From Acidisarcina polymorpha (GTDB taxonomy: Bacteria > Acidobacteriota > Terriglobia > Terriglobales > Acidobacteriaceae): 64,000 nt of DNA. The DNA is taken from NCBI RefSeq assembly GCF_003330725.1, contig NZ_CP030840.1, forward strand, positions 5,820,116 to 5,884,115. Reading direction: 5' to 3'. The stretch's first letter is position 1; the number at the start of each line of letters is the position of its first letter. The notes under the pieces are model-generated. The model had not been told where the DNA came from. It did not search any database and saw only the letters and a program-made list of their open reading frames with translations. This document shows positions 10,551 to 61,979 of the stretch, piece by piece. Made by a program: the position numbers and the translations under genes.

Positions 10551-10740
10551 CTGTCTGCGTTTGTAACGGACGTTCAGTGCTGACAGAACTGGCCGTCAGC
10601 TACTGCTTTGGTGGTGTCAGAGAGTACAGATGATCACCCTCTTACGTTTAGGCGAAATCAAGCTCCATACGTCTCATTGATTTCTCATCCTTCGCTAGAT
10701 ACGACGGCTATAGACGTGCTTACCCTCTACACAGAGGATC

Positions 10741-17686: not shown

Positions 17687-17735
17687 AGGTTCACTCCGAA
17701 GCGACAACCTCCCGCCGCATCTGAAGCCGGCTTTC

Positions 17736-17771
17736 CTAGCGCCTTTCCAAGCTTTTCTAGCGCCTTTCCAA
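17736..17771. repeat. Tandem direct repeat, 2 x CTAGCGCCTTTCCAA, with a 6-nt spacer
   Basis: Seen directly between the convergent GT1 (ends 17686) and P450 (ends 17757). Confidence 0.4.
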
Positions 17772-22323: not shown

Positions 22324-24657
22324 TCAGGTCGGGGTCTTCAGCAGGAGGTAGCTCCCAACTAAACCGAAGAGGACGTCGGGCGACCAGGCAGCAAGGATCG
22401 CCGGCAGCATATTCACGTTCCCCATCGCTTCAAACATGGCCGCGGTCACCCAGTAGGTAACCGCCAGACCGATGGCGGCGGCGATTCCCGCCAGCGAGCC
22501 GCGCCTCCCCATCGAGAGGGCAAACGGAATCGCGAGCACGGCCATGACCAGGGTGATCAACGGATAAGCTAGTTTGCGATTGAGTTGAACGAGCAGCGGC
22601 ATCGTGTCGAAACCGCTTTGGCTGAGATCGCGTATGTAGCGCCGCAACTGCACGAAGCTCATCTCCTGAGACTGCAGACTCTCCTTCTTGAAGTACTGCG
22701 GCTGCTCAGGAATCTCAGGAAAGGTGCTGACTTCAAAAGGCGCGTAGGTCTTGATTGAATCTCCACTAAAGGTCCGGACCCACCCGCTTTCGAAGATCCA
22801 TTGCTGCACCGCCGGCTCCCAGTGGGCGGTCGCTGCAAAGATGCGCCGGGAGAGTGTAAACGTCGCAGGATCCAGCTCGAAGACGGTGACATTGGCGAAG
22901 CGGTCATGGTCGGGATCGAAGAACTGGTAGTAGAAAATTCGATCAGGCCGCCCAGCTTCCTGCTTCCCGAACATCCACTTCTGATCGGGACGGAAAAAGG
23001 TCTGCGCCGGCTTCCCCTTAATGACGCTGCGTAAGGCTTCCTGGCGGCGATTGGCGGAGGGAACATAGAGTTCATCGAAGGCAAAGAGGGAACTGGCGAC
23101 TAGCAGAGAAATCACCAGCACCGGAAGGGCAACCCTGTAGAGGCTGATGCCTGTCGCTTTCATCGCCGTGAGTTCGTTGGTGCGGTGCATGGTGCCGAAG
23201 GTCACGAGGACTGCCAGCAATACGCTTAGTGGCGTAATCGTGTAGATCATGCTCGGGGTCAGGTTGATCAGGTATTCCCCGACGGTCACGAACGGCGTCT
23301 TATTGCGGATGATGTCGCCAATCAATTCAAAGAAGGTGAAAACCAACAGCAGCATCACGAAGGTGACCAGCACCAGGCCGAGAGTCGTCAGGAATTCGCG
23401 CAGGATGTAGTCGTCCAGGATGAGAGGAAATCTTCCTCGCCCCTGACGTTTGACCCGGGCCACGGCGGGAGATCGCTGCGCTGGTGCTTCGAATTTAGCG
23501 AACCACGTTTTTACCCAGGAGGAGATCGTTCCGAAATATGCCAGCGCCGCGTTGCCGGTGGCTATCTGGCGAAGCAGAAAGACTCCGCAAATGCCGAAGA
23601 CGGCATTCGAAAGCCAGACTCCCGCGAATGGCGGAACCTTTCCTTGGCGTGCCAGCGCCACGCCGATGATGGACAAAAAATAGTAAACGAAGACCAATAG
23701 GATGGTCAGCACGAAGCCCGCGCTCTTGCCGCCACGCCTGGAGGCCATGCCCAGCGGCACGCCCACCAGCATAAGAACGAGGCAGGCGGCGGGATAAGAG
23801 AGCCGCTTATTGAATTCAATCAGCGCCGCCTTCCCGTCGACACTGTTCGGCGAATTTCTGGCTCGGGCGATCAATTCACTACTCGAAAGCGCAAGGATGG
23901 GGGCATCGCTTCTGCCCAACCGGGTATCGTCCTTGTCGCTGAGAGGCAAAGGTAGATCGGTCACGCCAAAGGTGGAGATGTTGTATTGGTTCGGTTGGCT
24001 GGCGCTGGTTTCGTGCTCAACGCCATTGCGCAGCCTCATGCGCAAAGTAGCGTCAGTGTCATTGACAACCGTGGCTTGTTCCGCACTGATGATTTGCGGA
24101 GAGGAAGGATCGGTGAGATTGGCGAGGAAGATATTCTGCCAGTTGGATGCTCCCGTTCCGGCTCGTACATTCTGCACATAGAGGACGTAATCTTTAAAGT
24201 CTTCATAGAACACCCGCGGCTGGATCTCGAAGGATGCCTGCGAGGTGAGCAGCGAAGCTTTGAGCCGAAGCAGCGCTGCCGATGCCCGCGGCGCGAAATA
24301 GAGCGAGTTCGCCATGCCCACCAGCCAGCCAAGAACCGCAACGACCAGCACAATGCGTACAAAGCTCAACACGCCAATGCCGGAGGCGCGCATGGCGGTA
24401 ATTTCACTATCGGCCGCCAGTCTCCCCAGACCCAACAGGATTCCGACCAGCACTGCCATCGGAATGGTCACCGTGAAGGTGTTGGGCAGGGTGAACAGGA
24501 AGATCTTGAGCACGCTGACCAGCGAAGAACTGTTGTGCACGACCAGCGCCAGGATCCCACCGAGATCCCGCATGAACAGAATAAAAGTGAAGAGCGCCCC
24601 GCCAATCAGTGCGTGCGAGAAGACTTCCCTCAAGATGTAGCGGCTGAGAATGCGCAT
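22324..24657 (-). CDS. Fused LptF/LptG-family (YjgP/YjgQ) LPS export permease, two tandem permease domains in one 777-aa polypeptide
   Basis: Two YILRE-led six-TM domains: MRILSRYILREVF... and LILDDYILREFLTT.... Each has a large periplasmic β-jellyroll segment. Confidence 0.75.
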   Translation of the reverse strand: MRILSRYILREVFSHALIGGALFTFILFMRDLGGILALVVHNSSSLVSVLKIFLFTLPNTFTVTIPMAVLVGILLGLGRLAADSEITAMRASGIGVLSFVRIVLVVAVLGWLVGMANSLYFAPRASAALLRLKASLLTSQASFEIQPRVFYEDFKDYVLYVQNVRAGTGASNWQNIFLANLTDPSSPQIISAEQATVVNDTDATLRMRLRNGVEHETSASQPNQYNISTFGVTDLPLPLSDKDDTRLGRSDAPILALSSSELIARARNSPNSVDGKAALIEFNKRLSYPAACLVLMLVGVPLGMASRRGGKSAGFVLTILLVFVYYFLSIIGVALARQGKVPPFAGVWLSNAVFGICGVFLLRQIATGNAALAYFGTISSWVKTWFAKFEAPAQRSPAVARVKRQGRGRFPLILDDYILREFLTTLGLVLVTFVMLLLVFTFFELIGDIIRNKTPFVTVGEYLINLTPSMIYTITPLSVLLAVLVTFGTMHRTNELTAMKATGISLYRVALPVLVISLLVASSLFAFDELYVPSANRRQEALRSVIKGKPAQTFFRPDQKWMFGKQEAGRPDRIFYYQFFDPDHDRFANVTVFELDPATFTLSRRIFAATAHWEPAVQQWIFESGWVRTFSGDSIKTYAPFEVSTFPEIPEQPQYFKKESLQSQEMSFVQLRRYIRDLSQSGFDTMPLLVQLNRKLAYPLITLVMAVLAIPFALSMGRRGSLAGIAAAIGLAVTYWVTAAMFEAMGNVNMLPAILAAWSPDVLFGLVGSYLLLKTPT

Positions 24658-34195: not shown

Positions 34196-35521
34196 ATGAC
34201 TCAGTTTTGGTCCAATTGGCGGCGGTTGTGGTGCATGTGGCTTGCGGGCGTCACAATTTCCGCGACCGTGGCTTTTCCCCAGCCGCCGCATCTGAGCGTG
34301 CCCGGTCAGCCGACCCACGCGTGGACGGAGTTTACTTCAGAAGGGGTAAGCGTTCGCGCGATCATCAACGGGCCGGATTGCCCGTCCGTCAGCGTTGACG
34401 GCGAGTCGATCCCGATGGCGGTGCGCGCGAAGTCCAGCGCCGAGTTCCCGGTGACTACTTGTCAGACGCTCATTCCTTCAGGTGCGAAATCCGCTGTGGT
34501 CAATGGACAGACGCTCGCGCTTGCGCCGCGCAAGCTGAGGCGGATTGTGGTGATTGGCGACACGGGTTGCCGTTTAAAGGGCGCCGAGGTGCAAGATTGC
34601 AACGATCCGAAAATATGGCCGTTCGCCACCATGATCAGGAACGCCGCGGCTAAGCATCCAGACTTGGTGATCCACGTCGGCGACTACTATTACCGGGAGA
34701 CCTCTTGTCCGGAGCAGCGGCCGGGCTGCAACGGCAGTCCTCATGGAGACCTCTGGGACAGCTGGCGCCTGGACTTCTTCGATCCGGCTTCAAGTCTGTT
34801 GGCCGCCGCACCCTGGATCTTTGCCCGCGGAAATCACGAACAATGTGGGCGAGGTTCGAGCGGCTGGTTTCGCTTTCTCGACGCTGCGTCGGCTCCGTTG
34901 ACGTGCCCCGCGACCTCGGCGCCGTTTGCCGTACACTTCGACCGGCTTCAGCTCGATGTCATCGACACTGCCGATGTTGTTGACAAGCAGCTCAGTATCG
35001 ATCGGCTCGCGTTCTATCAGAAGCAGATATCTGCGATTCCGGCTAACGCTTCGGTCAATAAGAAACAGGAGGCGACCTGGGTGATCACCCACAAGCCGCT
35101 TTGGGGCTACGAACTCACGCGTGCCGGGCAATCCATGATCGCGCAAAATCCCATGCTTGCGGCCGCGGCCGAGATGATGGATACACCGAGAAGCGTCCAA
35201 TTGCCGGGTGTGGACCTGTTGCTTGCCGGGCATATTCATCTTTTTGGCGCGCTCGACTTCTCGAGCAATCAGGCATCGTTGCGGCCTGCCCAACTCATTG
35301 TCGGCGATAGCGGCACTGCGCTCGATTCGGCGGACGTTCGCAGTGGTGAAGAGACGATCGACGGTCTCTTGGCAAAGTATGTGGTCAAAGGCAACTTCGG
35401 TTATTTTGTTCTAGATCGAAAAAAGAAGGGCTGGACCGGCATCCTCTACAGCACCGAAGATGCGCCGCTGGTGCGATGCACCTATCACCAGCGGCAGATC
35501 GAATGTCAGGCTGTGGAGTAG
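34196..35521 (+). CDS. Secreted calcineurin-like metallophosphoesterase (purple-acid-phosphatase-like)
   Basis: GDTG, GDYYY, GNHE and the GHIHLF metal-ligand series. N-terminal signal or TM segment. Confidence 0.75.
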   Translation: MTQFWSNWRRLWCMWLAGVTISATVAFPQPPHLSVPGQPTHAWTEFTSEGVSVRAIINGPDCPSVSVDGESIPMAVRAKSSAEFPVTTCQTLIPSGAKSAVVNGQTLALAPRKLRRIVVIGDTGCRLKGAEVQDCNDPKIWPFATMIRNAAAKHPDLVIHVGDYYYRETSCPEQRPGCNGSPHGDLWDSWRLDFFDPASSLLAAAPWIFARGNHEQCGRGSSGWFRFLDAASAPLTCPATSAPFAVHFDRLQLDVIDTADVVDKQLSIDRLAFYQKQISAIPANASVNKKQEATWVITHKPLWGYELTRAGQSMIAQNPMLAAAAEMMDTPRSVQLPGVDLLLAGHIHLFGALDFSSNQASLRPAQLIVGDSGTALDSADVRSGEETIDGLLAKYVVKGNFGYFVLDRKKKGWTGILYSTEDAPLVRCTYHQRQIECQAVE

Positions 35522-38984: not shown

Positions 38985-40037
38985 TCAGTCTCCTGAAAGC
39001 TCCCAGGGACCCTGACTCGATCCTGGTGTGGCCGAGTGCCCAATTGGGTGCACGACAGTCGACGCCGGAAAACATCGAACGCAATCGCCGCCCGCCTGCT
39101 TTGCCGCGCGCAGCGTGCTTTCCGCTTCCCGCAGCACCAGCAGCGGAGAGCGTCCGCCACTTTGCGCAATGCCGAAGCTCGCGGTCACAGAAACTGAAGC
39201 CTTGAGGATATCGAAGGGGCGTCTTCGTATGCAGTCCTGCAATCGCTGCGCCATGCCCCAGGCGTCGCGCATCGAACAGCCCGGCATGGCGATCAGAAAT
39301 TCGTCCTCACCACACCGTCCGGCTAGATCGTAGCTGCGGAGGTGACGGCGAAGACGGCTGGCAAACTGGCGCAGGATGTTATCGCCGCCGTCGTATCCAT
39401 ATCGTTGATTGACGAGCGAAAAGTGATCCAAATCGAAGAGCAGAAATGCCAGGGGACTGCCCATTCGCTGTGCCCGGTCGGTTTCAAGAAAGAGCCGGGT
39501 GAGGAGCGACTCGCGGTTCCATAGACCAGTCAGCGAATCGCGGCTGGCATGGAAGCGAGCCGCGTCAACTGACTCCAGCATCTCTGCATGTATCGCCCTC
39601 ACCCGGAACGCCGCGTGGAGACTGACGCGGAGATCAAATTCATTCACGGGTTTGGTCAGAAAGTCGTCTATGTGGATGCCTCGCGCGAGCGCCCGGCTCC
39701 CCTTGCCGGGAGATTCAGAAGAGTCAGTCAAGGCGATCGTCCAGCATCGGCAGCGCGACGATTGCCAGTGAAACTGATGGAGAAGTGCGACGCCATCCAG
39801 CCCAGCAAGAGCGTTATCGACGATCAGAATGGGTGCAGGTTCTCCTTCGTTCAAGGCTTCGAGGAGCGCCGCCCCGTCGTCAGCCGTGATGACCTGATAC
39901 CCCCAATCGGCGAGTAGATCCCTCAGGATGCTTCGCTCTAAGGAGTCAGCTGCGCCGACCAGAATCCTGGAACGCAGAGCCAGGCCAGATGATGACGCCG
40001 AGATAGCCGATTGATTTGCCTGAGAGAGCTTACCCAT
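38985..40037 (-). CDS. Response regulator with C-terminal GGDEF domain bearing a degenerate GEDEF active-site motif and an intact RxxD I-site
   Basis: Receiver domain (ILVGAAD...ILIVDNALAGLDG). The GGDEF domain has RSYDLAGRCGEDEF aligned to RxxD-x4-GG(D/E)EF, with the second Gly replaced by Glu. Confidence 0.8.
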   Translation of the reverse strand: MGKLSQANQSAISASSSGLALRSRILVGAADSLERSILRDLLADWGYQVITADDGAALLEALNEGEPAPILIVDNALAGLDGVALLHQFHWQSSRCRCWTIALTDSSESPGKGSRALARGIHIDDFLTKPVNEFDLRVSLHAAFRVRAIHAEMLESVDAARFHASRDSLTGLWNRESLLTRLFLETDRAQRMGSPLAFLLFDLDHFSLVNQRYGYDGGDNILRQFASRLRRHLRSYDLAGRCGEDEFLIAMPGCSMRDAWGMAQRLQDCIRRRPFDILKASVSVTASFGIAQSGGRSPLLVLREAESTLRAAKQAGGDCVRCFPASTVVHPIGHSATPGSSQGPWELSGD

Positions 40038-40156: not shown

Positions 40157-41470
40157 CTAGCCCTGCGCCACCGGTTCGCGATGGTCGCGTGCCATCTCGT
40201 GAGGCCGCCGCTCGATCATTTGGAGGACTTGCCGACAAACACCCGCGGCTACTTCGCGCTCCAACGGGATCAATCGACCGCCTACTCTACAAAGCGCCCA
40301 GTCCTTGCCAGACTCGATGCTCATTCGCTCCTCCGTTGCAGGGATCCGCCGCAGGGCGTCACTGGCTTTGGGCGCGATCCTGAAATTGGACTTGAGCTGG
40401 GCTGCTTGAATCAAGCGAAGCAGCGATGGTCCAAGTCCGGTCAGCCAAAACTCGCGCTGATATTTCTTCGCCGTATAAGCCAGATGGATCAGCTCTCCAA
40501 GCGCATCCGGGCCGATGAAGGTGGTCCGGGCTAGATCCAATATCAGGTGACGACCGGTTCTGACGGCGAGCCGGGCCTCCTCTTCAAAGTTCGCGACGGG
40601 CGTGCCCGTTAGTCTCCCGGAGATCCGCAGTATGGTTGTCGAGCCGATCTCTTCCATGACGACACCGTTCATCCAGTGACCGGGCTTCTGGGCGGCGCTA
40701 GCCGCGAGTTGCAAGGCCATATAAACGACCATGCCAAGGGCGTCTCGAAGATACCGCGCACCCAAACGCGCCGGTTCTTGGCAGGTCCGGAAAAACCACT
40801 CCAGGCCCTGTCGCTGCATCCACAAAGGCGCGCGTCGCAGCATTCCGGCGAGAATGTCGAGCGAGCCTCCGATTCCAATGCAGACGGGAACTTTCAAGCG
40901 ATGACTATGCATCGCGAGCCATTTCTCCTGCTTCGGACTGCCGAGAGCCACCAGCAGAATATCCGGCTTGGCTGCTTCAATCTGTAGCAGAATCCGCTCA
41001 TGATCCATCTCGTCCAGGTCCTGTATCTCGGGACAACAGCGTCCTACGATCCTTACTCCTGGATAGCTGAGCGCCATCCACTCCGCTGCGCCCTCGGATG
41101 AGGCCTCGCAGGAGCCGAGCAGGAAGATCCCATATCCGCGGTCGGCTGAAAGTTCTGCGATCTTCGGTACCAGGTCTGCGCCGCTGACGCGCTCTCGCAA
41201 AGCAGAACGCATCATGCGCGAGGCCCAAACCAAGGGCATGCCATCGGGCAGGACCAGGTAACACGCGGCAAGGATGTCCTTCAACTCCTGGTCGTGGATG
41301 GAAGTGATGAGGAAGTCCACATTGGCAGTAGCGATGTGATGAAAGCCGCCCTCGTGGATACCATTTTCAATGGCCTCTACAGCTTCGTCCATCGACACGT
41401 TATCGATGGGAACGCCTATCATTGCGACACAACCGCTTCTGAGACGTTGCATGAATGATCCCCGGTTCAT
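40157..41470 (-). CDS. WecB/TagA/CpsF-family glycosyltransferase fused to a C-terminal STAS (anti-sigma-antagonist-like) domain
   Basis: N-terminal IGVPIDNVSMDEAV...LPDGMPLVWA...LGSPKQEKW is the WecG/TagA signature. The C-terminal ~110 aa ILRISGRLTGTPVANFEEEARLAVRTGRHLILDLARTTFIGPDALGELIHLA match a STAS fold pattern. The start is taken at ATG 41470 (MNRGSFMQRL). Confidence 0.7.
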   Translation of the reverse strand: MNRGSFMQRLRSGCVAMIGVPIDNVSMDEAVEAIENGIHEGGFHHIATANVDFLITSIHDQELKDILAACYLVLPDGMPLVWASRMMRSALRERVSGADLVPKIAELSADRGYGIFLLGSCEASSEGAAEWMALSYPGVRIVGRCCPEIQDLDEMDHERILLQIEAAKPDILLVALGSPKQEKWLAMHSHRLKVPVCIGIGGSLDILAGMLRRAPLWMQRQGLEWFFRTCQEPARLGARYLRDALGMVVYMALQLAASAAQKPGHWMNGVVMEEIGSTTILRISGRLTGTPVANFEEEARLAVRTGRHLILDLARTTFIGPDALGELIHLAYTAKKYQREFWLTGLGPSLLRLIQAAQLKSNFRIAPKASDALRRIPATEERMSIESGKDWALCRVGGRLIPLEREVAAGVCRQVLQMIERRPHEMARDHREPVAQG

Positions 41471-41829
41471 TTGAACTTGGACGAGGGACGTCCTCTGCTC
41501 GCTTTTCCGATTGGTGAGGCGACGGCTCTTCTGAGCAGAGACGCGCCTATTTCGCCGTCGGTCGAGCCGCGGAAGTCGGTCCAGAGCTGAAGTACAGCTG
41601 CTGTTTTGCGGGCAAGTCGCTAGGCACACTTCTCCGCCGGAGAAGTACGCTGAGTGGGTTCGCTCCGCATTGCAGTGGCTGTTCTTCTGGGCTAATCGTC
41701 CAGATATAAATGCGTTTGTTGGAGCGATATTAGGGTAAGCAAGCCTGCGGATGCCACCCCAATTCATCGGGCGTCGCCCGGATGTCGAGGTTCCGCTCCA
41801 GAACGGGAAATCCTACTGTTGAGTCGGCA

Positions 41830-44100
41830 TTACAAATTTTTTCCGAAGAACTCCGTGGCGCGTTGATAGAGCACCGAACAGGCGGCCGGTTTGTCGACGA
41901 TCCGGGTCTGCCCGGGATAGAGGGAAATCTCGGCATATTTGCGCGCTTGCACTAATTCGCTCTGCAGTTCCATGGATTGGTCCGGATGAATCTTAAGATT
42001 CCCCGCGCCATGAGCAACCAGCAGGCTCCCCTTGAGGAACTTGGAGTAATCCAGCGGAGAAGAAGAAAGGTATCCATCCTGGTTTTGCACGGGATCGCCA
42101 AGGTAGCGCTCCGCATAGGCGGAGTCTTGCTGGAACCAATCGACGACCGGCGCCACTGCGAAGCCCGCCTTGAAGAACAGCGGGGCATGGAGCATGGCAT
42201 TAATCGTGATTGCGCCGCCGAAGCCTTCCCCCCAGATGCCGAGCCGCTCCGGATCAATGTAGGGGAGTGCCTGGAAGAAGTGAACGGCGTCCTTAAGGTC
42301 GGTAATCTCCTGACCCTCAAATCGCTGGTGAATGTATTCTTCGTAGATGTGCCCGCGGCCGGCAGTGCCGCGATTGTCTAGCGCGAGAACGATAAATCCT
42401 CGCTGAGCCAACATCTGGTTCCATATCGACACGTCGCCTTCCCACGTATCGTGAACGGCCTGCCGTCCCGGGCCTCCGTAGATATAGATCACGGCGGGAT
42501 ATTTTTTCGCTGCGGTAAAGCCCGGAGGCCTGATCATCGAGGCGTTCATCTCGATGCCGTCGTGGCTTTTGATGGTGATGAAATCGACTTGTTGCAGCGC
42601 CGGTTTCATGGGACTGCGCACCCTGCTGTTGTCGAGCACAAAAACCTTGGCGGCAGCGATGGACTCGGTCTGGGAGCCGAGCTGGTATACCGTCCGTATC
42701 CACGGTTTGACGACGGTCGAGAAACGATCGACGAATGCGGCAGCATTCGGCGCGAAGATCGCTTCATGGGTCCCGCTTTCCCCGGTGATGCGTTTGGCCT
42801 CATTGTTGCCGGTGTTACCGCCCTCAAACCTCACCGAGTACAGCTGCCGATCAAGCGAGCTCTTTTCGGTTGAAGTGTAGTAGATGATGCCGTCCTTCTC
42901 ATTGACAGCATTGAGCGAGGTGACCTCCCATTTGCCGTCCGTGAGTTGACGCACCAGTTTGCCATCAAGATCGTAAAGAAAGAGGTGGCGATAGCCGGAC
43001 TTTTCATTCGACCAAAGGAACTGTGGCGTACTCTTCGAGAAGTAAAGAATATCGCTGAGGTTGATCCAATACGGGTCGGTGTCAGTCAAGATGGTTCGGG
43101 CCGTGCCGGTGTGTGTGTCAGCTATAAGTAGCTCAAGCTTTGTTTGCGCACGATTCAGACGCTCGACCGCCAGTCGCTTGCTATCCGGGAGCCATTTCAT
43201 CCGTGGGAGGTAAATGTCTTTTTCGGTACCCGTATTGATTGCCACGGGCGTCGACTTAGCGGCCACGTTGAGGACCAGGACACGAACCGTCGGGTTGGCC
43301 GTTCCCGGGGTTGGGTAGTCAATCGTTTCTGCCGGGCCGTCTTCGTCCGGCTGAAAAGGTGGGGTATAAAGGGCCACTCCTTTGAGGTTGAACTCGTAAT
43401 AAGCGATTTGCCGTGAATCGGGCGACCACTCGTATCCGTGCCGGGTACCGAGTGAGTCCGGATACATCCAGTCCAGTTCACCGCGGCGAAGGATCTCGGT
43501 TCCGCCATGAGTGATCTCTCGGGCTTGGCCTCCCGCAGTGCTGATCATCCACAGGTTGTGCTGGCGAACAAAACCCACCCAGTGGCCGTCGGGAGAAAGC
43601 TGCACGTCCCCAATTACTTCTTCGCCGGAGATCAAGGTGCGAGTCTGCAGGGTCTTCCGATCCAGCCAGACTATACTTCGATCGCTGTGCAGCAGAAGGC
43701 CGGCGCTGTCAGGGCTCCACTCCAAGCCAACCTTCTCCCGAGGAGGTGGAGCCATCGTGCCCTTATCACCCTTCGCCGTGGCGGGGAAGAGATGGTCGAT
43801 CTGGCTTTGGTTCAGCAAAACGGTTGGCTGCTTGCCGAGTGAGTCCACTCCATCGAGTTCGAGGCGAAGGCCAAATCCACTATCGAGCGACTTAAAGTAG
43901 ACGATATTGCCGCTATCGGGACTCCACCAGAATTGCTTGCCCTGGGACTCTGGAGGCACGGCCGCAGCGCAAACGTCCTCGATACCGATGCCGGGCGATT
44001 TCGCGGCGGCGGGAGGCAGATCTCCCCCGGGGCGCTGAGCGAGAAGAATGCAGCCTTGCGGAAGAAACAATGCCAACGAAAGCGTAAGCCATTTCCGCAA
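41830..44100 (-). CDS. S9-family serine peptidase (dipeptidyl-peptidase IV-like: N-terminal β-propeller plus C-terminal α/β-hydrolase)
   Basis: A TTG start gives the signal peptide (M)RKWLTLSLALFLPQGCILLA. DPPIV_N-like propeller repeats. GWGEGFGG (GxSxG-type with Ser to Gly? read as GEGFGG). A catalytic Asp/His region lies in the C-terminal hydrolase fold. Confidence 0.75.
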   Translation of the reverse strand: MRKWLTLSLALFLPQGCILLAQRPGGDLPPAAAKSPGIGIEDVCAAAVPPESQGKQFWWSPDSGNIVYFKSLDSGFGLRLELDGVDSLGKQPTVLLNQSQIDHLFPATAKGDKGTMAPPPREKVGLEWSPDSAGLLLHSDRSIVWLDRKTLQTRTLISGEEVIGDVQLSPDGHWVGFVRQHNLWMISTAGGQAREITHGGTEILRRGELDWMYPDSLGTRHGYEWSPDSRQIAYYEFNLKGVALYTPPFQPDEDGPAETIDYPTPGTANPTVRVLVLNVAAKSTPVAINTGTEKDIYLPRMKWLPDSKRLAVERLNRAQTKLELLIADTHTGTARTILTDTDPYWINLSDILYFSKSTPQFLWSNEKSGYRHLFLYDLDGKLVRQLTDGKWEVTSLNAVNEKDGIIYYTSTEKSSLDRQLYSVRFEGGNTGNNEAKRITGESGTHEAIFAPNAAAFVDRFSTVVKPWIRTVYQLGSQTESIAAAKVFVLDNSRVRSPMKPALQQVDFITIKSHDGIEMNASMIRPPGFTAAKKYPAVIYIYGGPGRQAVHDTWEGDVSIWNQMLAQRGFIVLALDNRGTAGRGHIYEEYIHQRFEGQEITDLKDAVHFFQALPYIDPERLGIWGEGFGGAITINAMLHAPLFFKAGFAVAPVVDWFQQDSAYAERYLGDPVQNQDGYLSSSPLDYSKFLKGSLLVAHGAGNLKIHPDQSMELQSELVQARKYAEISLYPGQTRIVDKPAACSVLYQRATEFFGKNL

Positions 44101-44274
44101 AGTGAATGTCTTTTGTAGGGAACCCAACCACGCAGAATGATCCTTACGACTCTCTTCGACGAAACGCAAAGCTCACCTCGGAATAGGATGTGTTTGTTTC
44201 CAAGCTAACATCCCAATCTCTCGGGAATCCGGGCGTTCGCCGCTTCGGCTCCAAACTGCTCCCTAAACTGCTCT

Positions 44275-54287: not shown

Positions 54288-55547
54288 CTAACGCTGCATT
54301 ACATCATGTAGATGTCTCGCTGCGCGTTGAGCTCCATTCTGCCATGCAATCTTCTCTTGCATTCTTCGAGCCGCATTCCTATAAGATGGATCGCCCAACA
54401 CTTCCTCTATCATTGCGGCAAGTACATCTCGATCAGGTGTCTGAGTATTTAGAAATCTGCCCACTCCGAAGTGGGCGACTCTTGCCGCCACCCCCGGCTG
54501 ATCAAAGCCAATAGGAAGGACAACGAGAGGCACCCCGTGGTAGAGGGATTCCAGTACTGTGTTCAGGCCCCCGTGGGTGATACATAGATCAGCTAGTTTG
54601 AGGAGATCTATTTGCGGTGCATACGATACGGTGATCGTGTTTTCCGCCAGCTCTCCGAGATCATCCGGCTGAAGATATGGTCCCGTAGAAACGACTACTT
54701 GCCTGCCCTTTGCTTGAGCAGCTTGTACCACGAGCCGTAGCCGTTCCGCTGAACCATTCAGCATAGTTCCCATCGTTACGTAAATGAATGGATCGCCCGT
54801 GAGCCTTTCCCAAGGGAATTCAGTCGTGGTACTGACCTCAGGTGGGCTGATGAGCCCCGCATGGAATAGTTGCTCGGGCCAAAGCGGGCTGGCGAAATCG
54901 AATTCTTTAGGTACTTGAGTAATCCATGCCTGTTTCGAAAGAAACGGATAGGCCGTGGAGAGATCGGGCGTTATGCCCCTTTCGCTAAGGTATTTAAGAG
55001 CTGCAGCTCGACCAGGGCCGGCAAGTTGCAGGAGCGACCGAACACCTGCTTTGTTCCTTGCAATCGCTTCCATGCTAGCGTCCGGTCCCCAATCGAAGTA
55101 ACAAGGGGGGGTTCCTCCACTGTAGTCTTCATGAACCTGAGCAGAGAGGTGGGCAAATGGAATACCTAGATTCATCGCAACCATTTCAAATCCTCGGGCA
55201 CAGGAGTCGAGAATTAGCGCGTCGGCCCTGCTTACTCGAACAGCTCTTTCCCCGTCCTTGAGAACCCCAATGCCTACATCACACGCGACGGACGCTGCCT
55301 CACGAACGACATCTAAACCAAACATCGTGCGGATAGGGTGATAGCGTCGCTCGACTTCGCCGTGTGGAAAGTCCTGGATACACGCCGATACAAACTCGAT
55401 TCCGGCCGCGCGAAACCATGGTTCCTGGTCTTCTAAACCGATTGCGCATACTGTATGACCAAGCGAGTCGAGCTCCCTGGCGAGTCCAGACATCACTCTC
55501 ATATGACTTGATGCGGGTACTGTATAGACGGCGAATCTCATTGTCAA
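54288..55547 (-). CDS. GT1-family UDP-glycosyltransferase (CrtX/MGT-like), paralog 1
   Basis: CITHGGLNTVLESLYHGVPLVVLPIGFDQPGVAARV matches the C-terminal donor-binding block of the zeaxanthin-glucosyltransferase/MGT subfamily. Confidence 0.8.
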   Translation of the reverse strand: MTMRFAVYTVPASSHMRVMSGLARELDSLGHTVCAIGLEDQEPWFRAAGIEFVSACIQDFPHGEVERRYHPIRTMFGLDVVREAASVACDVGIGVLKDGERAVRVSRADALILDSCARGFEMVAMNLGIPFAHLSAQVHEDYSGGTPPCYFDWGPDASMEAIARNKAGVRSLLQLAGPGRAAALKYLSERGITPDLSTAYPFLSKQAWITQVPKEFDFASPLWPEQLFHAGLISPPEVSTTTEFPWERLTGDPFIYVTMGTMLNGSAERLRLVVQAAQAKGRQVVVSTGPYLQPDDLGELAENTITVSYAPQIDLLKLADLCITHGGLNTVLESLYHGVPLVVLPIGFDQPGVAARVAHFGVGRFLNTQTPDRDVLAAMIEEVLGDPSYRNAARRMQEKIAWQNGAQRAARHLHDVMQR

Positions 55548-55590
55548 TAATCCTTGATGCTGCTACTAGAAGTGGAGTGGCGAACGTCGG

Positions 55591-56211
55591 TCACGACAGG
55601 TTAGCCGATGATTCACTCTGATGGTGTTCAGGGCCGAGCGATAATGGCGCGCGGTATAAGCTAAGGTCTATAAAGTAGGAGTGATACTTGCCCTGCTCCA
55701 TGGAAAACTGAGCCGCTGGATGCGTATCAACTCCCCGTGCGGCAGTTATCGACGGAACGTTATTGGCAGCAATAAAGCTGATTGCAAACGCAAACTCACG
55801 AGAGGCAGCGCGACACGCGACTGCATGCAGTCTCTGAAAGACATTCTTGCCGCGTGCCTTGCCCGAGAGGCACACTGGTCCAAATAGACACGTCTCCAGG
55901 CCGGGATCTACGATACCGTTATCTTCGAAGCTTCTATGGAGGGAGGAGAGTAACGCGTTGATGATAGAGTTGCCCATCCAATGACGCGTGCGAGAGACGC
56001 AAAAATAGCCCAGCAAGTCGGTATCTTCACAGGCGATCACGATCCCCAGATCGTTTGCGTAAGTGTCTATGTCTTGGAGCGTCATCTCGACGGAGAGGAA
56101 TCCTTTTCGCCGCTCTGATTCGGATAGATTGTTTATATAGCGGGTTCGCTGCAAAGCGATGATGGAGCTGTAATCTTTGGGAGTAGCGAATCGGAGTGAA
56201 AGTCTAGTCAT
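55591..56211 (-). CDS. Putative GNAT-fold acyl-CoA N-acyltransferase
   Basis: CLSGKARGKNVFQRL resembles GNAT motif A. Sits between two GT1 paralogs. The match is weak. Confidence 0.45.
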   Translation of the reverse strand: MTRLSLRFATPKDYSSIIALQRTRYINNLSESERRKGFLSVEMTLQDIDTYANDLGIVIACEDTDLLGYFCVSRTRHWMGNSIINALLSSLHRSFEDNGIVDPGLETCLFGPVCLSGKARGKNVFQRLHAVACRAASREFAFAISFIAANNVPSITAARGVDTHPAAQFSMEQGKYHSYFIDLSLYRAPLSLGPEHHQSESSANLS

Positions 56212-56238
56212 TGTTCAGATTCCTTTTGAATCGGTGCA

Positions 56239-57525
56239 CTATTTAATCGGGTTTGCTATACCTGTGCTTATCGAAGCGAATGCCCGATCGATAATTCTTC
56301 CGGCATGCGCGAGACTCTGTTTCCGATCCAAGGCGGTCTGCATTAGGATCGCATTCATGCGGTATTTCGGGTTGTTTAGCACTTCGTCGACTAGCCGCGA
56401 AAGAACCGGTAACGTTATTTCCTCGGCACGGCAGAAGACGCCCACTTCTGCGTGTGCAACCCGCGCGGCGACTCCTGGCTGATCGTTCGTGATCGGAAGG
56501 ACAACAAGTGGCACTCCGTACTGCAGAGCTTCCAAGACTGTATTTACTCCTCCATGAGTAATACAAAGTCTTGCTCGTTGAAGAAGTTCCAGTTGAGGGG
56601 CAGACTTTACCAAGATCAAATTACCGGGTACGTCTTCAGACTTATCCTGCTGCGCTGATCCGCCCGTTGTCAGAACTATCTGACATGTCTTCGCTCGTGC
56701 GAGCTGCACAATCATTTGGTAAAGAGGCAGAAGGCCATTTTGCAACGTGCCGAAGGACACATAAATGAGCGGCTCCCCCGTCAGAAGATGCCATGGAAAA
56801 TCCGCGTGGTCAGTTGCCGATGGCTCGCAGAGTGGGCCGACATGGATGAGCTGCTCTGGCCAATAGGGATTCGGAAAATCTAACTCCGATGGTAACTGGG
56901 TGAGCCAAGCAAGCCTCGATGTTAGAGCGTGAGGGTCATTCCAGTTCACCGTGACGCCAGCATCGGTGAGGAAGTGCTTGATCATCGCCTGCATTGGAGC
57001 GGCTTTCTGAGCAAAGCGATATAGTCCCGAGCGATTCCGCTCAATAGCCTCCTTTGTTGTGTCTGGTGGCCAATCATAGCTCCAAAAAGGTGTATAGCCA
57101 GAGTAGTCACTGTGAAGTGCGTTCGAGACCTGCACGTAAGGAATACCCATCGATAGGGCTACAGCTTCCATTCCTTTGGCCGAGAAATCGATTACTAGCG
57201 CTTGAGCACGACTCTGGCGAAGAACTCTGGGGCCATCTCGGAGCACAGCTTTGCACAAGTCACTTAGCAGATCAATACTGAACTCGGTACCAGCCTGGCC
57301 TGACATGGAGCGAAGGGGGGCAAAGATAGAGGCAATCGACCCCGGAGGATATTCTTCTTCACACATGGGGAAGAAGAGCATGCCTTCTTCTTGTGTAACT
57401 CTAGCCTGGAGATCACAAAGACCAAGGACAATAACCTCATGACCGAGAAGGTGCATCTGCCGCGCGACAGAAAGCAGTACGGACACATGGCTGTAGAGCG
57501 GCAGCATATAGAACGCGATTCTCAT
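56239..57525 (-). CDS. GT1-family UDP-glycosyltransferase (CrtX/MGT-like), paralog 2
   Basis: CITHGGVNTVLEALQYGVPLVVLPITNDQPGVAARV. Collinear similarity to the 54288..55547 product throughout (DYSG..TP, WPEQL, etc.). Confidence 0.8.
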   Translation of the reverse strand: MRIAFYMLPLYSHVSVLLSVARQMHLLGHEVIVLGLCDLQARVTQEEGMLFFPMCEEEYPPGSIASIFAPLRSMSGQAGTEFSIDLLSDLCKAVLRDGPRVLRQSRAQALVIDFSAKGMEAVALSMGIPYVQVSNALHSDYSGYTPFWSYDWPPDTTKEAIERNRSGLYRFAQKAAPMQAMIKHFLTDAGVTVNWNDPHALTSRLAWLTQLPSELDFPNPYWPEQLIHVGPLCEPSATDHADFPWHLLTGEPLIYVSFGTLQNGLLPLYQMIVQLARAKTCQIVLTTGGSAQQDKSEDVPGNLILVKSAPQLELLQRARLCITHGGVNTVLEALQYGVPLVVLPITNDQPGVAARVAHAEVGVFCRAEEITLPVLSRLVDEVLNNPKYRMNAILMQTALDRKQSLAHAGRIIDRAFASISTGIANPIK

Positions 57526-57639
57526 AGTTCTTCTCGAAACTGCTCGTGCGCGTTGGGCCGTTTTAGACGGGGTGGTATTTTCCTGGTCCTTGAATCGATA
57601 GTTAGTTTGCTCAAGGCGTATCTAACTCTTGCCAGAAGG

Positions 57640-58887
57640 TTAGCCATCTATGCGAACGGGAAGCGATTTGAGTGACCGCATCCAATAGGCGGGCTGATAA
57701 TCGAATGTCGTTGTGTTCAACTCAATGTTAGGGAACCGCTGTAAAAGAGATGCCAACGATATCTGTATTTCAAGCTTTGCCAGGGAAGCGCCGATGCAAT
57801 AATGTGGTCCATATCCGAATGCTAAAGAGGAAGGGTTCTCCCTTCTCAGGTGGAGCGTCTCCGGTGAGGAATACTGTTCTGGGTCGTGGTTTGCGGCGCC
57901 TAAGCCGAGTTGCACACGGGTTCCACTTTTCAATACAATTCCATCGATGTCATGGTCGCCTGAGAGCAACCTGGTAACCCATAGAACGGGGCTAACGAAG
58001 CGCAGGAGTTCGTTGACGGCATTTCCCAGCAACTCCGGCGTGTCTAGCAACTCGACCCACAGAGAGCGCTGTTGAAGCAAGTGCCGCATGGCTCCCGAAA
58101 GCAGGTTCGTTGTAGTTTCATGTCCGGCAAACAGCAGGAAGCTAACCTGCACCATGATTTCGTCGGGCGACATCCTCGCTTCGGGGTCAGGCTCATTGAC
58201 CAAACGCGAAATGAGGTCTTTCGAAGGGCTCTTCCTGCGCAGCGCAATGATGCTCTTGAGTACAAGCTCTGCCGCGCGAACCCGCTCTGCGATGTTCTCG
58301 ATCATCTGCTGGTCTCCATGTAGAACCGCCCCAGGAAATCGCGTGAGCCACATGGACATCTGCCGAATAGTGTCATGAGACTCCTCAGGGATGCCTAGTA
58401 TGTCAAATATGACCCCGGAGGGAAGCGGATGAGCGAAGCTGCGCACAAAGTCGATTTCGCCTTCCTCCTCGATGGCGTCCAGCAATTGCACCACTCGGTT
58501 TTCGATAGCCTTGCGCATGTCTGCTATGACGTCAGCTGTGAAGGCCTTCGTTATGGCGATGCGTTGGGTAGTATGCTGCGGAGGATCTGTCGCGAGGATT
58601 GTGGTAAACCAAAATTTGTAGCAGACGTTGAATGCGTTCGCAGTAGTGGCGGGAAGAGCTTCGGCGCGTCTCAATATCTCCGGACCGGTACCGGACCTGA
58701 AGAGTGCCGGTAATTGCAGCGCGGCTTTAACATCTTTATATCGGGACAGCATCCAGAACTGGTTTTCGGCCCGCCAATATACCGGATGGTGTTTCCGAAG
58801 ACGGGTGAAGTACGGATATGGCTCCTGGATGTTTGACAGAGAAAACGGATCGAGATTGACTGAGAGCTGTTGTTGGTTTGTGTCCAT
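57640..58887 (-). CDS. Cytochrome P450
   Basis: I-helix FAGHETTTN, ELLRF (ExxR), and heme loop FGYGPHYCIGASLA. The start is taken at MDTNQQQ. Confidence 0.85.
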   Translation of the reverse strand: MDTNQQQLSVNLDPFSLSNIQEPYPYFTRLRKHHPVYWRAENQFWMLSRYKDVKAALQLPALFRSGTGPEILRRAEALPATTANAFNVCYKFWFTTILATDPPQHTTQRIAITKAFTADVIADMRKAIENRVVQLLDAIEEEGEIDFVRSFAHPLPSGVIFDILGIPEESHDTIRQMSMWLTRFPGAVLHGDQQMIENIAERVRAAELVLKSIIALRRKSPSKDLISRLVNEPDPEARMSPDEIMVQVSFLLFAGHETTTNLLSGAMRHLLQQRSLWVELLDTPELLGNAVNELLRFVSPVLWVTRLLSGDHDIDGIVLKSGTRVQLGLGAANHDPEQYSSPETLHLRRENPSSLAFGYGPHYCIGASLAKLEIQISLASLLQRFPNIELNTTTFDYQPAYWMRSLKSLPVRIDG

Positions 58888-59182
58888 CCTTGAACTCCTA
58901 ACTGTCTTTACATAAACCTGGCGTACCGAACGCCACCATCGCCGCGCGACACGGTACATTTGCAAAATGCATCCCGCCTCCCCGAGGGCCTATCTCGCGA
59001 GCTCTGGTCAGTCAGCGGGCGCGGTCACAGAGGTTCTTAGGCGTATACACCAATTTAAGGTCACATCATTTATCGAGGCAGCTTCGCCCTTACTCAGGCA
59101 ACTAGGCCGGACGTGTGCAACGTTGTGGCAATTAGGACTTGAACCGATTGTCTCGGCGTCGCCGGATAGACAGGCGTTCGAA

Positions 59183-60367
59183 TCAGAGTGGCGTTCTCAA
59201 ATCGGCGCAAGATGCAAGCTGAGCTGAGATGCGCTCCGCGACTTCTCTCGATATGGGAGAGCGCACGTAAAAGTCTTCTGCGGTAGACTGCAGTCTGTCA
59301 ATTCCCAGATTCCTGATGCGCCAATCTTGGTAGAAACCGTGTGCGACGCAGAGTTCCGGTACGTCTGTCACTCCCTCATCGGACAGGACGCGAGCCAGAA
59401 AAAACGTATGATAGCCGAGCCGGTGAACCCGCTCGACCTGTAGCTCGCGCACTCTGCACGCAAACAGAGGCACCGGAATTTTGAAGATTTGGGACGGACG
59501 CGTGGGAAAGGGAAGCTCCTTCCAATCGATGGTAGGCCGGTTATGATTGGAGCCTAAGAAATATGCGATAGGGCCTTGCTTCATGGGAACACTGCTGAGC
59601 GCGACACGCCTGGTTTGTTGGACGAACCTTTCGGGCAAATAATTGTGCTTGAGGCAGAAGCCGAAGTAACTGCGGTTGAGTTCACCCATCACGTTCAGGG
59701 GAAAAATATTCCCGTTGCCCTCCTCATCCGCGACGCTGAGGAGAGAGACGGGGCGCGGGCAGCAAAACAGGGCCGACATGGCGTTCATCTGCCCAGCGGG
59801 AACTCGGATCTTGTTTGCCCTGCGGGAGGTAACAAGTGTATACCACAGGCGATTGCTCCAAAGCCTTACCGTGGGAAGACAGTAATTGACACACCTGCTG
59901 GAACGAAAGAGTAGAAACTCCGACCCACCGCATTCCAGCCTATCCTGATAATCAAGGTCGACCTCACTGAGGACACGATGGGCACCGCCGTTTTCGCACA
60001 AACGCAGCTTAAGTAGCTGGCAGTGGCTTTCATCGGGTGCCTGGCCCTGCGCGAATTCGATGCAGATGGTAAACGGCAATCCGGACGCCTGGCAGTGGCG
60101 CGTGGTAACGTCGATGGGCCTACCTACCCCGAGGAGCCACACCACGACTTCCTGCTGTGATGCCGTTTGCGCTAGAAAGAACCGGTTCGGCAGTTGCTCT
60201 CCGCCAAGTACTGCTTTTTTCATCCGTTTCAGCAGGTGCTTCTTTAGTGACATAGACGTTTCCGTCGGGTGCACGATGAGGCTTTGCCTAAGACAACTGA
60301 TTATGTCCATGACTATCTCGGCGATCTTTGATGATGCCCCGCTCTTATCTCGGAGGTGATCACCCAC
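59183..60367 (-). CDS. Flavin-reductase-like (FMN-binding split-barrel) domain protein with an unassigned ~190-aa N-terminal extension
   Basis: The C-terminal ~200 aa are PVSLLSVADEEGNGNIFPLN...LFACRVRELQVERVHRLGYHTFFLARVL, resembling the flavin reductase pattern (VTT..dG.pNgMT...; a.leC.v...gdH.ifigeV). The start is uncertain; the internal Met at 59788 is an alternative. Confidence 0.45.
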   Translation of the reverse strand: MGDHLRDKSGASSKIAEIVMDIISCLRQSLIVHPTETSMSLKKHLLKRMKKAVLGGEQLPNRFFLAQTASQQEVVVWLLGVGRPIDVTTRHCQASGLPFTICIEFAQGQAPDESHCQLLKLRLCENGGAHRVLSEVDLDYQDRLECGGSEFLLFRSSRCVNYCLPTVRLWSNRLWYTLVTSRRANKIRVPAGQMNAMSALFCCPRPVSLLSVADEEGNGNIFPLNVMGELNRSYFGFCLKHNYLPERFVQQTRRVALSSVPMKQGPIAYFLGSNHNRPTIDWKELPFPTRPSQIFKIPVPLFACRVRELQVERVHRLGYHTFFLARVLSDEGVTDVPELCVAHGFYQDWRIRNLGIDRLQSTAEDFYVRSPISREVAERISAQLASCADLRTPL

Positions 60368-61141
60368 ACGCCACGTCTAGTAGCGATGGATTACAGACAA
60401 GGACGGTTTAGGCGCTCGATTGTGGGCCGCTCGGCCTCCAGATAGACTTGCACTCACTCTTGATATAACGCCTTCACGCGCACGCTGACCATCTCATCGT
60501 TGGCATTTGCGGACGTCACGCCTGTTGTCGCCGACTATTCCATTTAGTGCCGAGCGTCGCTGCGCCTCCGACCAGAAGGCCGCTCTTCATAAAAGAGCGG
60601 CGGCGATCAAGTGAACGCTTGATGTTGTCCCGTGAGTTTCGCATTCTTGCCTGCCTTTCTATCTAGTGAAACTAGACACAGGCATTTTTATTCTATCCAT
60701 CTCGAGTTATTCCAAGAAATTCGCCTCGAGCCGATGACCTACCTCGCACACGATCGTTCACCGCTAAGTAGCGGGCACCTTATTAGATCCGGAGACATGG
60801 TTGGCTGATGTTCCATCCGGCGGCGCAATATTCCTGCAGCGAAAGCTATAAGCTCGCCCTAGGACTTGCCTGGTAGGTGTAGCAAGGCGATCGATAGGAA
60901 GAGGCTGATAACCAGGTAACCAGCCGAACACTCTTGCCCCGACCTCCGAAGAACTGGCACAACTGAAAGAGACAGATCGACCGACGAGAAGACAAGTCGG
61001 ATTTTAAAACGTGAAGAAGCCCCGCCGATCGGAGCAGTAGAAGGCATAGAACCGTCGATCGGCTCTGTTGTTAGAGTTCTCGGCGAACCTATGCGCAGAC
61101 GATTTCCAGCTTCTTCAGCTTTAACGCTTGATCGAAAAGCG

Positions 61142-61933
61142 CTATGCAGGATCAATGGATTCGAGGACCGGATAGCCGAGAACATAGCTCACTGGAAGAA
61201 ACCCACTTCGGTCCTCTCCCATGTGCCATTGATAGCCGCTACGCTTCAACGGTTGCAACATGTTCTCAACTTCTTTCGTGGAGTAGACACGGAAACATGA
61301 AATTACCCCGTCGTACCACAGTACAAACGGGACAACCGGGATAAGGTAGGTCCAGAGCAATCGTGACCAGGAAAAAGGTCGTATGGTCGGAGCCAGCAAC
61401 CATGTAAGCGCAGGGATGCAACAGACGGCGAGCAGGGTTCGCGGGGAGCGGCGGGCAACTTCGAACACTGCAATCCCTCGCCGTTGTTTCATGGCGTTTT
61501 CAAGTATCATTTTGGCCTGACCACTACCAAAATGATGAAACGAGGAAAAGATTGTTTGGAAGCCTTCCAGATCCGCTGGAATCATCGTGGCATCTGTTGA
61601 ACGGTCCTCAAAAGATAGCAGGGTCGAGACCGCACTGGCCCGCTGGAAAGCTCGCAAATTTGGATACTTGTCGGTCAATCTGACTGATATTGCGGAAACC
61701 TTCTTCACTGCAGGCTCCCGGGCTAACCGCAACCATGGACCGCCCCCACCCGAGCAAAGATCCAGTACCTTAGAAGTTCCGGCGCGATTAATGCTTCCAA
61801 GTAATCGGCCGAGAATCGGCTTATAGAAGTTCCCAAAGTTCCACAGCGACTGTAACCCGTCGGTCACCAAGTCTCTCAGAAAGTTGGGACATGCCGGATG
61901 ATCGTGAATTTCTCGCAGATCTAAGCGTTGCAT
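61142..61933 (-). CDS. Class I SAM-dependent methyltransferase
   Basis: KVLDLCSGGGGP (motif I). The C-terminal region is hydrophobic. Confidence 0.7.
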   Translation of the reverse strand: MQRLDLREIHDHPACPNFLRDLVTDGLQSLWNFGNFYKPILGRLLGSINRAGTSKVLDLCSGGGGPWLRLAREPAVKKVSAISVRLTDKYPNLRAFQRASAVSTLLSFEDRSTDATMIPADLEGFQTIFSSFHHFGSGQAKMILENAMKQRRGIAVFEVARRSPRTLLAVCCIPALTWLLAPTIRPFSWSRLLWTYLIPVVPFVLWYDGVISCFRVYSTKEVENMLQPLKRSGYQWHMGEDRSGFLPVSYVLGYPVLESIDPA

Positions 61934-61979
61934 AGATTCAGTAATTTACCTTCCAGGAGGAAATATCGTGGACTTGAAC

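Follow-up and report, generated by a model that had tools for sequence, protein, structure and literature searches.

A GT26 glycosyltransferase with a serine-less STAS domain in Acidisarcina polymorpha, and its tandem-STAS relatives

A 64,000-nucleotide stretch of the Acidisarcina polymorpha genome (contig NZ_CP030840.1, positions 5,820,116 to 5,884,115; hereafter the window, with coordinates counted from its first letter) encodes on its minus strand a glycosyltransferase of the WecB/TagA/CpsF family (GT26) that continues at its C-terminus into a STAS domain. What does a domain known from anti-sigma-factor antagonists do on such an enzyme, and does it place the transferase under the control of a partner-switching kinase and phosphatase, as a sequence-only reading of the locus had proposed? 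Judged from its sequence, the window protein is a GT26-STAS fusion of a serine-less subclass rather than a partner-switching component, because the phospho-serine is missing and neither a kinase nor a PP2C phosphatase is linked to the gene. Residues are numbered below either on the 437-amino-acid (aa) translation that begins at 41470 or on the 421-aa product of the annotated start.

The catalytic domain, together with a TagA-type C-terminal activation appendage, occupies positions 40694..41422 (minus strand) and is recognised by PF03808, TIGR00696, phmmer and Foldseek alike. Glyco_tran_WecG (PF03808) matches residues 72-240 (437-aa numbering) with an E-value of 8e-57 and 192 bits against a cut-off of 27.4, TIGR00696 reaches 135 bits (cut-off 69) at the family level of NCBIfam, and phmmer aligns the protein with TagA (7mpk) at an E-value of 7e-42, the T. 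italicus enzyme aligning over residues 2-220 with ~36% identity. An AlphaFold2 model of the fusion protein, built on 150 homologues, has a predicted local distance difference test score (pLDDT) of 92.6 and a predicted template modelling score (pTM) of 0.84. Compared by Foldseek, this predicted structure superposes on the TagA crystal structures 7MPK, 5WB4 and 5WFG with template modelling (TM) scores of 0.91-0.93 and a root-mean-square deviation of ~2 Å. The pocket of TagA is made up of T37, N39, D65 (the catalytic base), R83, Q167 and E168, while its appendage contributes R214, R221 and R224 and has to close over the active site once the monomer is at the membrane (PMC6493773). T32, N34, D60, R78, Q165, E166, R212, R219 and R223 of the window protein (421-aa numbering) map in that order onto these T. 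italicus residues, R223 with an offset of one position, and the majority of them are invariant or at least 90% conserved among the 150 homologues. As all pocket and appendage residues of TagA are present, the fusion protein is taken as an active GT26 enzyme, presumably in peripheral association with the membrane. The appendage ends in a long helix at 40694..40774 (minus strand; residues 217-243 in 421-aa numbering, from the AlphaFold2 secondary structure), which lies in a block with a pLDDT of 91-96 over residues 211-250. The STAS domain follows this helix directly, and the pTM of the model suggests a defined arrangement of the domains.

These results bear out the WecG/TagA/CpsF assignment of the N-terminal part in the sequence-only reading, which had also labelled the enzyme as polysaccharide-priming. 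The latter label has to be given up, as the lipid-linked primer is the product of a phosphoglycosyl transferase and GT26 enzymes lengthen it, which puts them at the step after priming (PMC6493773). Scores at the equivalog level are far under their cut-offs for TarA (NF041710, 122.7 bits against 350), WecG (NF002980, 85.5 against 323) and EpsA (NF041872, 163 against 500). By the same scores the database name "N-acetylmannosaminyltransferase" is a family-level transfer only and is unjustified at the level of equivalogs.

The STAS domain is found at 40346..40666 (minus strand), corresponding to residues 269-375 of the 437-aa and 253-359 of the 421-aa product, by PF01740, PF13466 and Foldseek. STAS (PF01740) covers residues 271-372 with an E-value of 9e-11 and 41.9 bits against a cut-off of 22.6, STAS_2 (PF13466) reaches 2e-08 and 34.7 bits against 29.2, and a sub-threshold NCBIfam match to anti-sigma antagonists spans residues 270-369. 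The Pfam matches are not attributed to chance, since PF03808, PF01740 and PF13466 all exceed their curated thresholds. In the model of the full protein the STAS domain superposes on SpoIIAA and RsbV with TM scores of 0.83-0.93 (Foldseek), and a C-terminal profile built from 14 members of the clade picks up TM1442, a STAS protein, with an E-value of 2e-12, and SpoIIAA too. The C-terminal STAS domain proposed from sequence is therefore real, although its placement at residues ~320-437 was wrong, the domain lying at ~269-375.

Profile alignments to SpoIIAA and TM1442 identify the loop FIGPDALG, at 40496..40519 (minus strand), as the equivalent of the SpoIIAA phosphorylation loop FMDSSGLG. At the position of the phospho-serine Ser58 of SpoIIAA, in the beta3-alpha2 loop, the window protein carries Pro321 (437-aa numbering) instead of a phosphorylatable serine or threonine, and a conserved aspartate follows. 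Across 119 clade members aligned with hmmalign this position is alanine in 84, proline in 34 and serine in a single case, with the flanking glycine and aspartate each present in 119/119; the closest 50%-identity representatives are likewise without serine at the site. The STAS domain of the window gene should, from this alignment, not be assumed to be a phospho-switch. Its conservation is nonetheless far from that of a decaying relic, a candidate explanation that was tried and ruled out. Identity to the query is 66% in the GT26 core, 49% in the STAS domain, 41% in the tail that follows it and 7-15% in the linkers, while columns conserved to at least 95% number 93/215 in the core, 22/107 in the STAS domain, 2/46 in the tail and 0 in the linkers. 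The STAS domain and tail, being far better conserved than the linkers, are thus under purifying selection. Among the STAS positions that are kept are GxDALG and REL/FWLTGL, which make up the partner-facing surface of canonical STAS proteins.

The serine-less class, which takes in the window gene and its closest representatives, possesses a single STAS domain, sometimes followed by the tail. No RsbW-like kinase, SpoIIE domain or other STAS domain was found in the 64-kb window, the sole match being to a receiver (REC) domain and not to SpoIIE, nor was any kinase or PP2C found in 42 related Acidobacteriaceae loci. A different picture emerges from distant relatives of the form WecG-STAS-STAS, where the canonical F-[ILMV]-D-S-[ST]-G motif is present in the one STAS domain as in the other. 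Serine or threonine occupies the site in both domains of 52 tandem representatives and of nearly all metagenomic examples, and the DS site is the better conserved in the second STAS domain (58/70). Such tandem genes lie in exopolysaccharide (EPS) clusters with the order GT4s, Wzy-like, GT2, WecG-STAS-STAS and Bac_transf. An RsbW-like HATPase_c_2 kinase of ~140 aa is encoded in five of these loci (L043, L044, L047, L052 and L062), after Bac_transf in L043, L044 and L047; the L043 kinase (144 aa, at 10226-10660), adjacent to the tandem-STAS gene of Desulfobaculum bizertense (P0160), has RsbW and SpoIIAB as its top NCBIfam matches. Four loci (L043, L044, L052 and L062) also encode a PAS- or REC-SpoIIE (PP2C) phosphatase, and in L043, L044 and L047 the transferase-fused STAS is the only STAS in the locus. 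Counting tandem loci with at least 8 kb of sequence, a kinase is nearby in 5 of 15. The corresponding figures are 0 of 29 for WecG loci without the fusion (Fisher p = 0.003) and 0 of 42 for the serine-less loci (p = 0.0007). The DS[ST]G motifs in both STAS domains, taken with the in-cluster kinase and SpoIIE/PP2C phosphatase, strongly suggest post-translational control of the transferase by partner switching in the tandem class.

Some of these clusters have further features. Beside the metagenomic WecG-STAS(-STAS) gene, L052 (3532-5855) and L062 (5069-7386) each contain a complete set of three separate genes, for a STAS-only protein, a PP2C and an RsbW-like kinase. In such clusters a free STAS thus exists alongside fused ones, and the two kinds could compete for a single kinase. 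A Metallophos (calcineurin-like phosphoesterase) gene stands directly after the hexapeptide-Bac_transf gene in L043, L044, L046 and L047, all four Desulfovibrio-type clusters. The window also has a Metallophos gene, at 34196-35521 (plus strand) and ~5 kb from the GT26-STAS gene, which may be coincidence.

The tandem relatives also give a context for the conserved C-terminal tail of the window protein (40187..40324, minus strand), a predicted strand-strand-helix unit delineated by AlphaFold2, hhalign and comparison with relatives. Formed by the last ~65 aa and separate from the STAS domain, it is modelled as strands at 367-371 and 376-380 and a helix at 389-412, with a pLDDT of 69-83. A Pfam scan of the tail recognised no family; hhalign sets it in register with STAS beta1-beta2-alpha1, weakly (E-value 0.003, probability 10%). 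In an intermediate protein (P0121) the same motif opens a 78-aa STAS-like stretch, and ~68 relatives have a full second STAS domain at the position of the tail. On this comparison the tail is probably the stump of a second STAS domain.

A connection of the family with exopolysaccharide synthesis is drawn from its paralogues. About 30 Terracidiphilus-type paralogues (52-55% identity) occur in a conserved module of NusG-like, WecG-STAS, GT2 and Poly_export genes, and some of these loci have as their best matches XrtA/PEP-CTERM EPS families (export protein, chain-length determinant, ATPase and tyrosine kinase), all under equivalog cut-offs. By their gene contexts such EPS-cluster paralogues tie the WecG-STAS family to exopolysaccharide synthesis. 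By contrast, the gene in the window stands alone, as do its orthologues in L001 and L006-L013 (64-68% identity), divergent from a META-domain gene, and Pfam scans of ~40 window open reading frames (ORFs) found no Wzx/Wzy, Poly_export or Bac_transf. The partner-switching control envisaged in the sequence-only reading would accordingly fit the tandem-STAS relatives, but not this gene, which has proline at the site, a stump for a second STAS, no kinase or PP2C either in the window or in the 42 loci, and no polysaccharide cluster around it.

How widespread the fusion is was addressed with a HMMER scan of 1.84 billion 50%-identity representatives, the best 149 matches besides the query's own cluster being classed by clade-specific hidden Markov models (HMMs). 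Around 125 of these 149 carry a WecG-STAS fusion. The classes among them comprise ~68 WecG-STAS-STAS, ~54 WecG-STAS, a few WecG-STAS-tail, 10 WecG-WecG and 14 WecG-only proteins. Fusion carriers belong to Acidobacteriota, Desulfovibrionales and Verrucomicrobiota, with many metagenomes too; those named by their sources include Terriglobia, Acidobacteriaceae, Desulfobaculum bizertense, Desulfovibrio inopinatus and Verrucomicrobiota including Pedosphaera. The same fusion is consequently present in other Acidobacteriota, where it had been suggested that it be sought, and one Pedosphaera record is already annotated as "Anti-sigma-factor antagonist and glycosyl transferase". Ordinary TagA, TarA and WecG proteins end after the appendage, TagA at 244 aa, and the NCBIfam profiles run to 240-265 aa. 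A metagenome scan with a generic appendage motif returned 80 loci, most of them ordinary WecG genes that were kept as a negative control, and in 57 further WecG-encoding metagenome loci (L066-L073, L075-L095, L097-L102, L104-L129) no STAS was fused to the WecG ORF. Given the length at which ordinary GT26 proteins end and the control loci without fused STAS, the domain is a genuine addition and not the generic C-terminal extension of WecG/TagA proteins that would have spoken against the fusion.

A literature search for WecG or GT26 together with STAS found no publication on the fusion, and the A. polymorpha cellulose paper makes no mention of the window gene. The fusion is abundant and already machine-annotated, yet uncharacterised in the searchable literature. 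The earlier impression of an uncharacterised architecture holds for WecG-STAS itself; the concept of an enzyme controlled by a STAS domain has a precedent in All4160 (PMC13555669).

Besides the fusion proteins, the same scan yielded tandem WecG-WecG proteins of ~480-560 aa (P0135, P0141, P0148, P0153, P0162, P0177, P0199, P0213, P0239 and P0259), and P0131 (762 aa) has the order WecG-WecG-STAS-STAS. Such covalent WecG-WecG dimers are intriguing given that TagA is regulated by its monomer/oligomer state.

Comparison with known systems sets out what is shared and what is particular to the window protein. With TagA/TarA of T. italicus and S. aureus (PDB 5WB4, 5WFG, 7MPK and 7N41) it has the fold, the catalytic residues and an Arg-rich appendage in common; TagA stops after the appendage, whereas the window protein continues into the STAS domain and tail. 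Its Gram-negative acidobacterial host is not expected to make wall teichoic acid. SpoIIAA and RsbV share the STAS fold and a beta3-alpha2 loop in register, but differ in that their serine is replaced here by proline or alanine, no anti-sigma kinase is encoded nearby and the domain is part of an enzyme instead of a stand-alone protein. The closest functional precedent is All4160 of Anabaena PCC 7120, an N-terminal STAS joined to Bac_transf, for which experiments show that the kinase Alr3423 switches it off by phosphorylating Ser74 and that the PP2C HenR restores its activity (PMC13555669, June 2026). XssP of Synechocystis is cited there as similar, and the strategy of fusing STAS to polysaccharide enzymes is described as largely cyanobacterial and lineage-specific (PMC13555669). 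In both All4160 and the window protein a STAS domain is fused to a polysaccharide enzyme that works on a lipid carrier, and control is placed on the enzyme itself and not on a sigma factor in All4160 (PMC13555669) and presumably in the window protein too. The two differ in that All4160 has a single N-terminal STAS with Ser74 on a priming Bac_transf, while the window protein has the order GT26 then STAS, no Bac_transf and a C-terminal STAS without serine, on an enzyme acting after priming. Tandem-STAS relatives with an in-cluster RsbW-like kinase and PP2C look, by analogy, mechanistically equivalent to All4160. In the syp locus of Vibrio fischeri, SypA is a STAS protein in an EPS locus that is switched by the kinase/PP2C protein SypE and controls polysaccharide post-transcriptionally (PMC4517449). 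SypA is free-standing, with a phosphorylatable Ser56 and a target that has not been identified (PMC4517449), whereas the window STAS is serine-less and covalently attached to its presumed target.

The reading that we favour can be put as follows. The GT26 enzyme would add the second sugar to an undecaprenyl-diphosphate-linked primer, and its membrane-activated appendage would be tethered directly to a module of one STAS domain and the stump of a second. This module probably derives from a tandem-STAS module, the direction of change being one that we infer; in the Acidobacteriaceae clade the site reads G-[A/P]-D in place of the serine, the second STAS is cut short and no kinase or phosphatase is linked, while the partner-binding surface (GxDALG loop, WLTGL) is still strongly conserved in a module that is most likely phosphorylation-independent. 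Protein-protein contact, either in cis with the appendage or GT domain or in trans, would then decide whether the appendage folds over the active site at the membrane, and c-di-GMP (cyclic di-GMP) may be the replacement input, as hinted by PilZ-fused sister paralogues and a REC-GGDEF neighbour in Acidisarcina. Taken as a composite, in which the STAS module regulates or docks the enzyme without phosphorylation, most plausibly via appendage closure and perhaps with c-di-GMP as replacement input, this proposal is given an even chance of being correct.

Several points weigh against it. The gating mechanism is hypothetical, and the view of the tail as half a STAS domain rests on a weak profile match to which Pfam is blind. 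The kinase counts come from an HMM made with three sequences, which may overlook kinases that have diverged, and the window gene and its orthologues L006-L013 were found outside EPS clusters. In addition, the genes of a partner-switching system often lie apart from one another, Anabaena being an example (PMC13555669), while the kinase search here covered the window and related loci. A threonine five residues upstream of the canonical site, kept in 105/119 clade members, could in principle be an alternative phospho-site. The last two points lend themselves to classical partner switching, in which an unlinked RsbW-type kinase and RsbU/SpoIIE-type phosphatase would toggle the transferase through phosphorylation of its STAS domain, as the likely mechanism in the tandem relatives would do; the kinase and phosphatase of All4160 are unlinked too (PMC13555669), and the partner-binding face of the STAS domain is conserved. 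Even so, the phospho-serine is proline here and alanine or proline in 118/119 clade members, the serine-bearing relatives often have in their clusters the kinase and PP2C that are missing from the window and the 42 loci, and it is the second STAS, the better conserved DS-site domain of the relatives, that is truncated. For this gene classical partner switching is thus very unlikely. Loss of the phospho-site, truncation of the second STAS and the lack of linked regulatory genes are equally what a structural module would lead one to expect, with the STAS and tail serving constitutive oligomerisation or docking to the envelope-polysaccharide machinery and no switching at all. A permanent interface is also compatible with the conservation, and TagA activity depends on oligomeric state (PMC6493773). 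Ordinary GT26 enzymes, however, work without such a module, the clade preserves the very loop and strand-helix motif by which STAS proteins engage partners in a switchable way, and regulatory PilZ domains have been added to paralogues, leaving the scaffold explanation possible but doubtful. MlaB, a STAS protein, permanently supports MlaF, and as such provides a model for it.

A further explanation assigns the input to c-di-GMP outright. Downstream of the fusion gene by 119 bp and on the same strand lies a gene for a REC-GGDEF protein (38985..40037, minus strand; Pfam GGDEF E-value 5.5e-34, Response_reg 1e-09), and the serine-less STAS would dock this neighbour and link c-di-GMP production or sensing to the transferase, the PilZ paralogues achieving the same in cis. 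Partner-switch proteins paired with a diguanylate cyclase are known from HsbA-HsbD and SiaC-SiaD. SiaD is among the neighbour's best NCBIfam matches, well below cut-off, and stressosome-type STAS systems controlling GGDEF outputs exist (title of PDB 3ZTB). The neighbour reads GEDEF instead of GGDEF/GGEEF, has a receiver domain with an atypical acidic pocket, and carries RSYD at what we take to be the position of the RxxD I-site of WspR. All three features recur in the Acidisarcina sp. orthologue (L001), and the protein might act as a receptor for c-di-GMP instead of making it, presumably reminiscent in its atypical GEDEF of a receptor such as PelD. An N-terminal PilZ domain is present in paralogues P0055 and P0088 (Pfam above cut-off) and P0077 (precomputed Pfam), and P0048 has a similar N-terminal extension; these paralogues are Terracidiphilus-type (L002/L003 8001-9668) and lie in an EPS locus. 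The 437-aa product and the 99-aa extension upstream of it have no match to PilZ (PF07238). Among the points that count against c-di-GMP, here and as the replacement input in the composite, the RxxxR motif of PilZ departs from the canonical form in some of the variants read, and adjacency to REC-GGDEF was seen in two Acidisarcina genomes only, the second being a related Acidisarcina metagenome-assembled genome (L001 and L006, same contig). In six other orthologous loci (L007-L013) the adjacency is missing and a convergent, unrelated gene follows. The REC-GGDEF protein, once considered as a conserved partner, was for that reason downgraded to a rival explanation, and docking to it is regarded as unlikely, if less so than classical partner switching. 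No operon is claimed for the pair, since a promoter and terminator scan around the window gene gave nothing above shuffled expectation. A bolder extension of the favoured reading would see WecG-STAS as a widespread and so far unrecognised class of self-regulated glycosyltransferases in which the STAS domain competes with the membrane or the active site for the appendage, as an intramolecular partner switch. The ancestral tandem form would be toggled by its in-cluster kinase and PP2C, and the Acidobacteriaceae form would have exchanged phosphorylation for another input, for instance c-di-GMP, by way of PilZ fusion or a partner GGDEF protein. This remains tentative and is placed level with the scaffold explanation.

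Control of EPS synthesis is usually seen as a matter of transcription, c-di-GMP receptors or tyrosine kinases. Direct STAS control of an enzyme acting on lipid-linked sugars was not shown until 2026, with a priming enzyme from cyanobacteria (PMC13555669). In WecG-STAS(-STAS) a module of this type is attached to the enzyme that follows the priming one, and its carriers are soil Acidobacteriota, sulfate reducers and Verrucomicrobiota. The kinase and phosphatase within some clusters make the hypothesis directly testable, and WecG-STAS may hint at the targets of SypA and other STAS regulators that are free-standing in EPS loci. If the proposal is true, direct STAS control of polysaccharide enzymes would not be specific to cyanobacteria and its input would be exchangeable, with the serine-less acidobacterial form and the PilZ paralogues as a natural example of a swapped regulatory input. 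The more valuable lead is the family-level finding of tandem-STAS GT26 proteins with in-cluster kinase and phosphatase; the window gene alone offers a smaller practical gain. Its module is degenerate and its context silent on the polymer made.

The coding sequence itself, 40157..41452 on the minus strand, comprises 431 aa and a stop codon if translation begins at M7, the probable start. It forms part of a single unbroken minus-strand ORF with its end at 40157 in the ORF list of the window. Translation from 41470 contains the motifs IGVPID, DGMPLVWA and GSPKQEKW and the STAS peptide quoted in the sequence-only reading, in line with the ORF described there; the gene, however, probably starts at 41452 and not at 41470. 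The window product is 100% identical to the A. polymorpha protein P0001, annotated "N-acetylmannosaminyltransferase", for which NCBI places the start at M17 (41422); the origin in Acidobacteriota implied by the sequence-only reading is thereby borne out. M7 (ATG at 41452) is probably the true start, favoured because a Shine-Dalgarno-like GGGGA motif lies 6 nt upstream and the N-termini of homologues ('MQ...GSVAILGVPIDN') align there. Ahead of the likely start, a further 99 codons can be read without a stop. This in-frame extension (41471-41767, minus strand) is basic, of low complexity and without a Pfam family match; it is probably an untranslated leader, into which automatic ORF callers could over-extend the GT26-STAS gene.

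Between the META-domain gene and WecG-STAS lies a gene for a DPP IV/S9 peptidase, both in the window (41830-44169, minus strand) and in L013 (2742-5033), while in the remaining orthologous loci META and WecG-STAS are direct divergent neighbours. Elsewhere in the window, a 777-aa protein encoded at 22324-24657 (minus strand) has two LptF_LptG matches, the LPS-export permeases LptF and LptG apparently being fused. Clusters of GT1-family (UDPGT/EryCIII-like) glycosyltransferases with cytochrome P450s are found at 54288-63224 (minus strand) and 16388-19277, and also hold flavin reductase-like, FAD monooxygenase-like and Acyl_transf_3 proteins. Their G+C content is 0.51-0.55, against ~0.58 in the rest of the window, and their gene content suggests the tailoring of a glycosylated small molecule or lipid.

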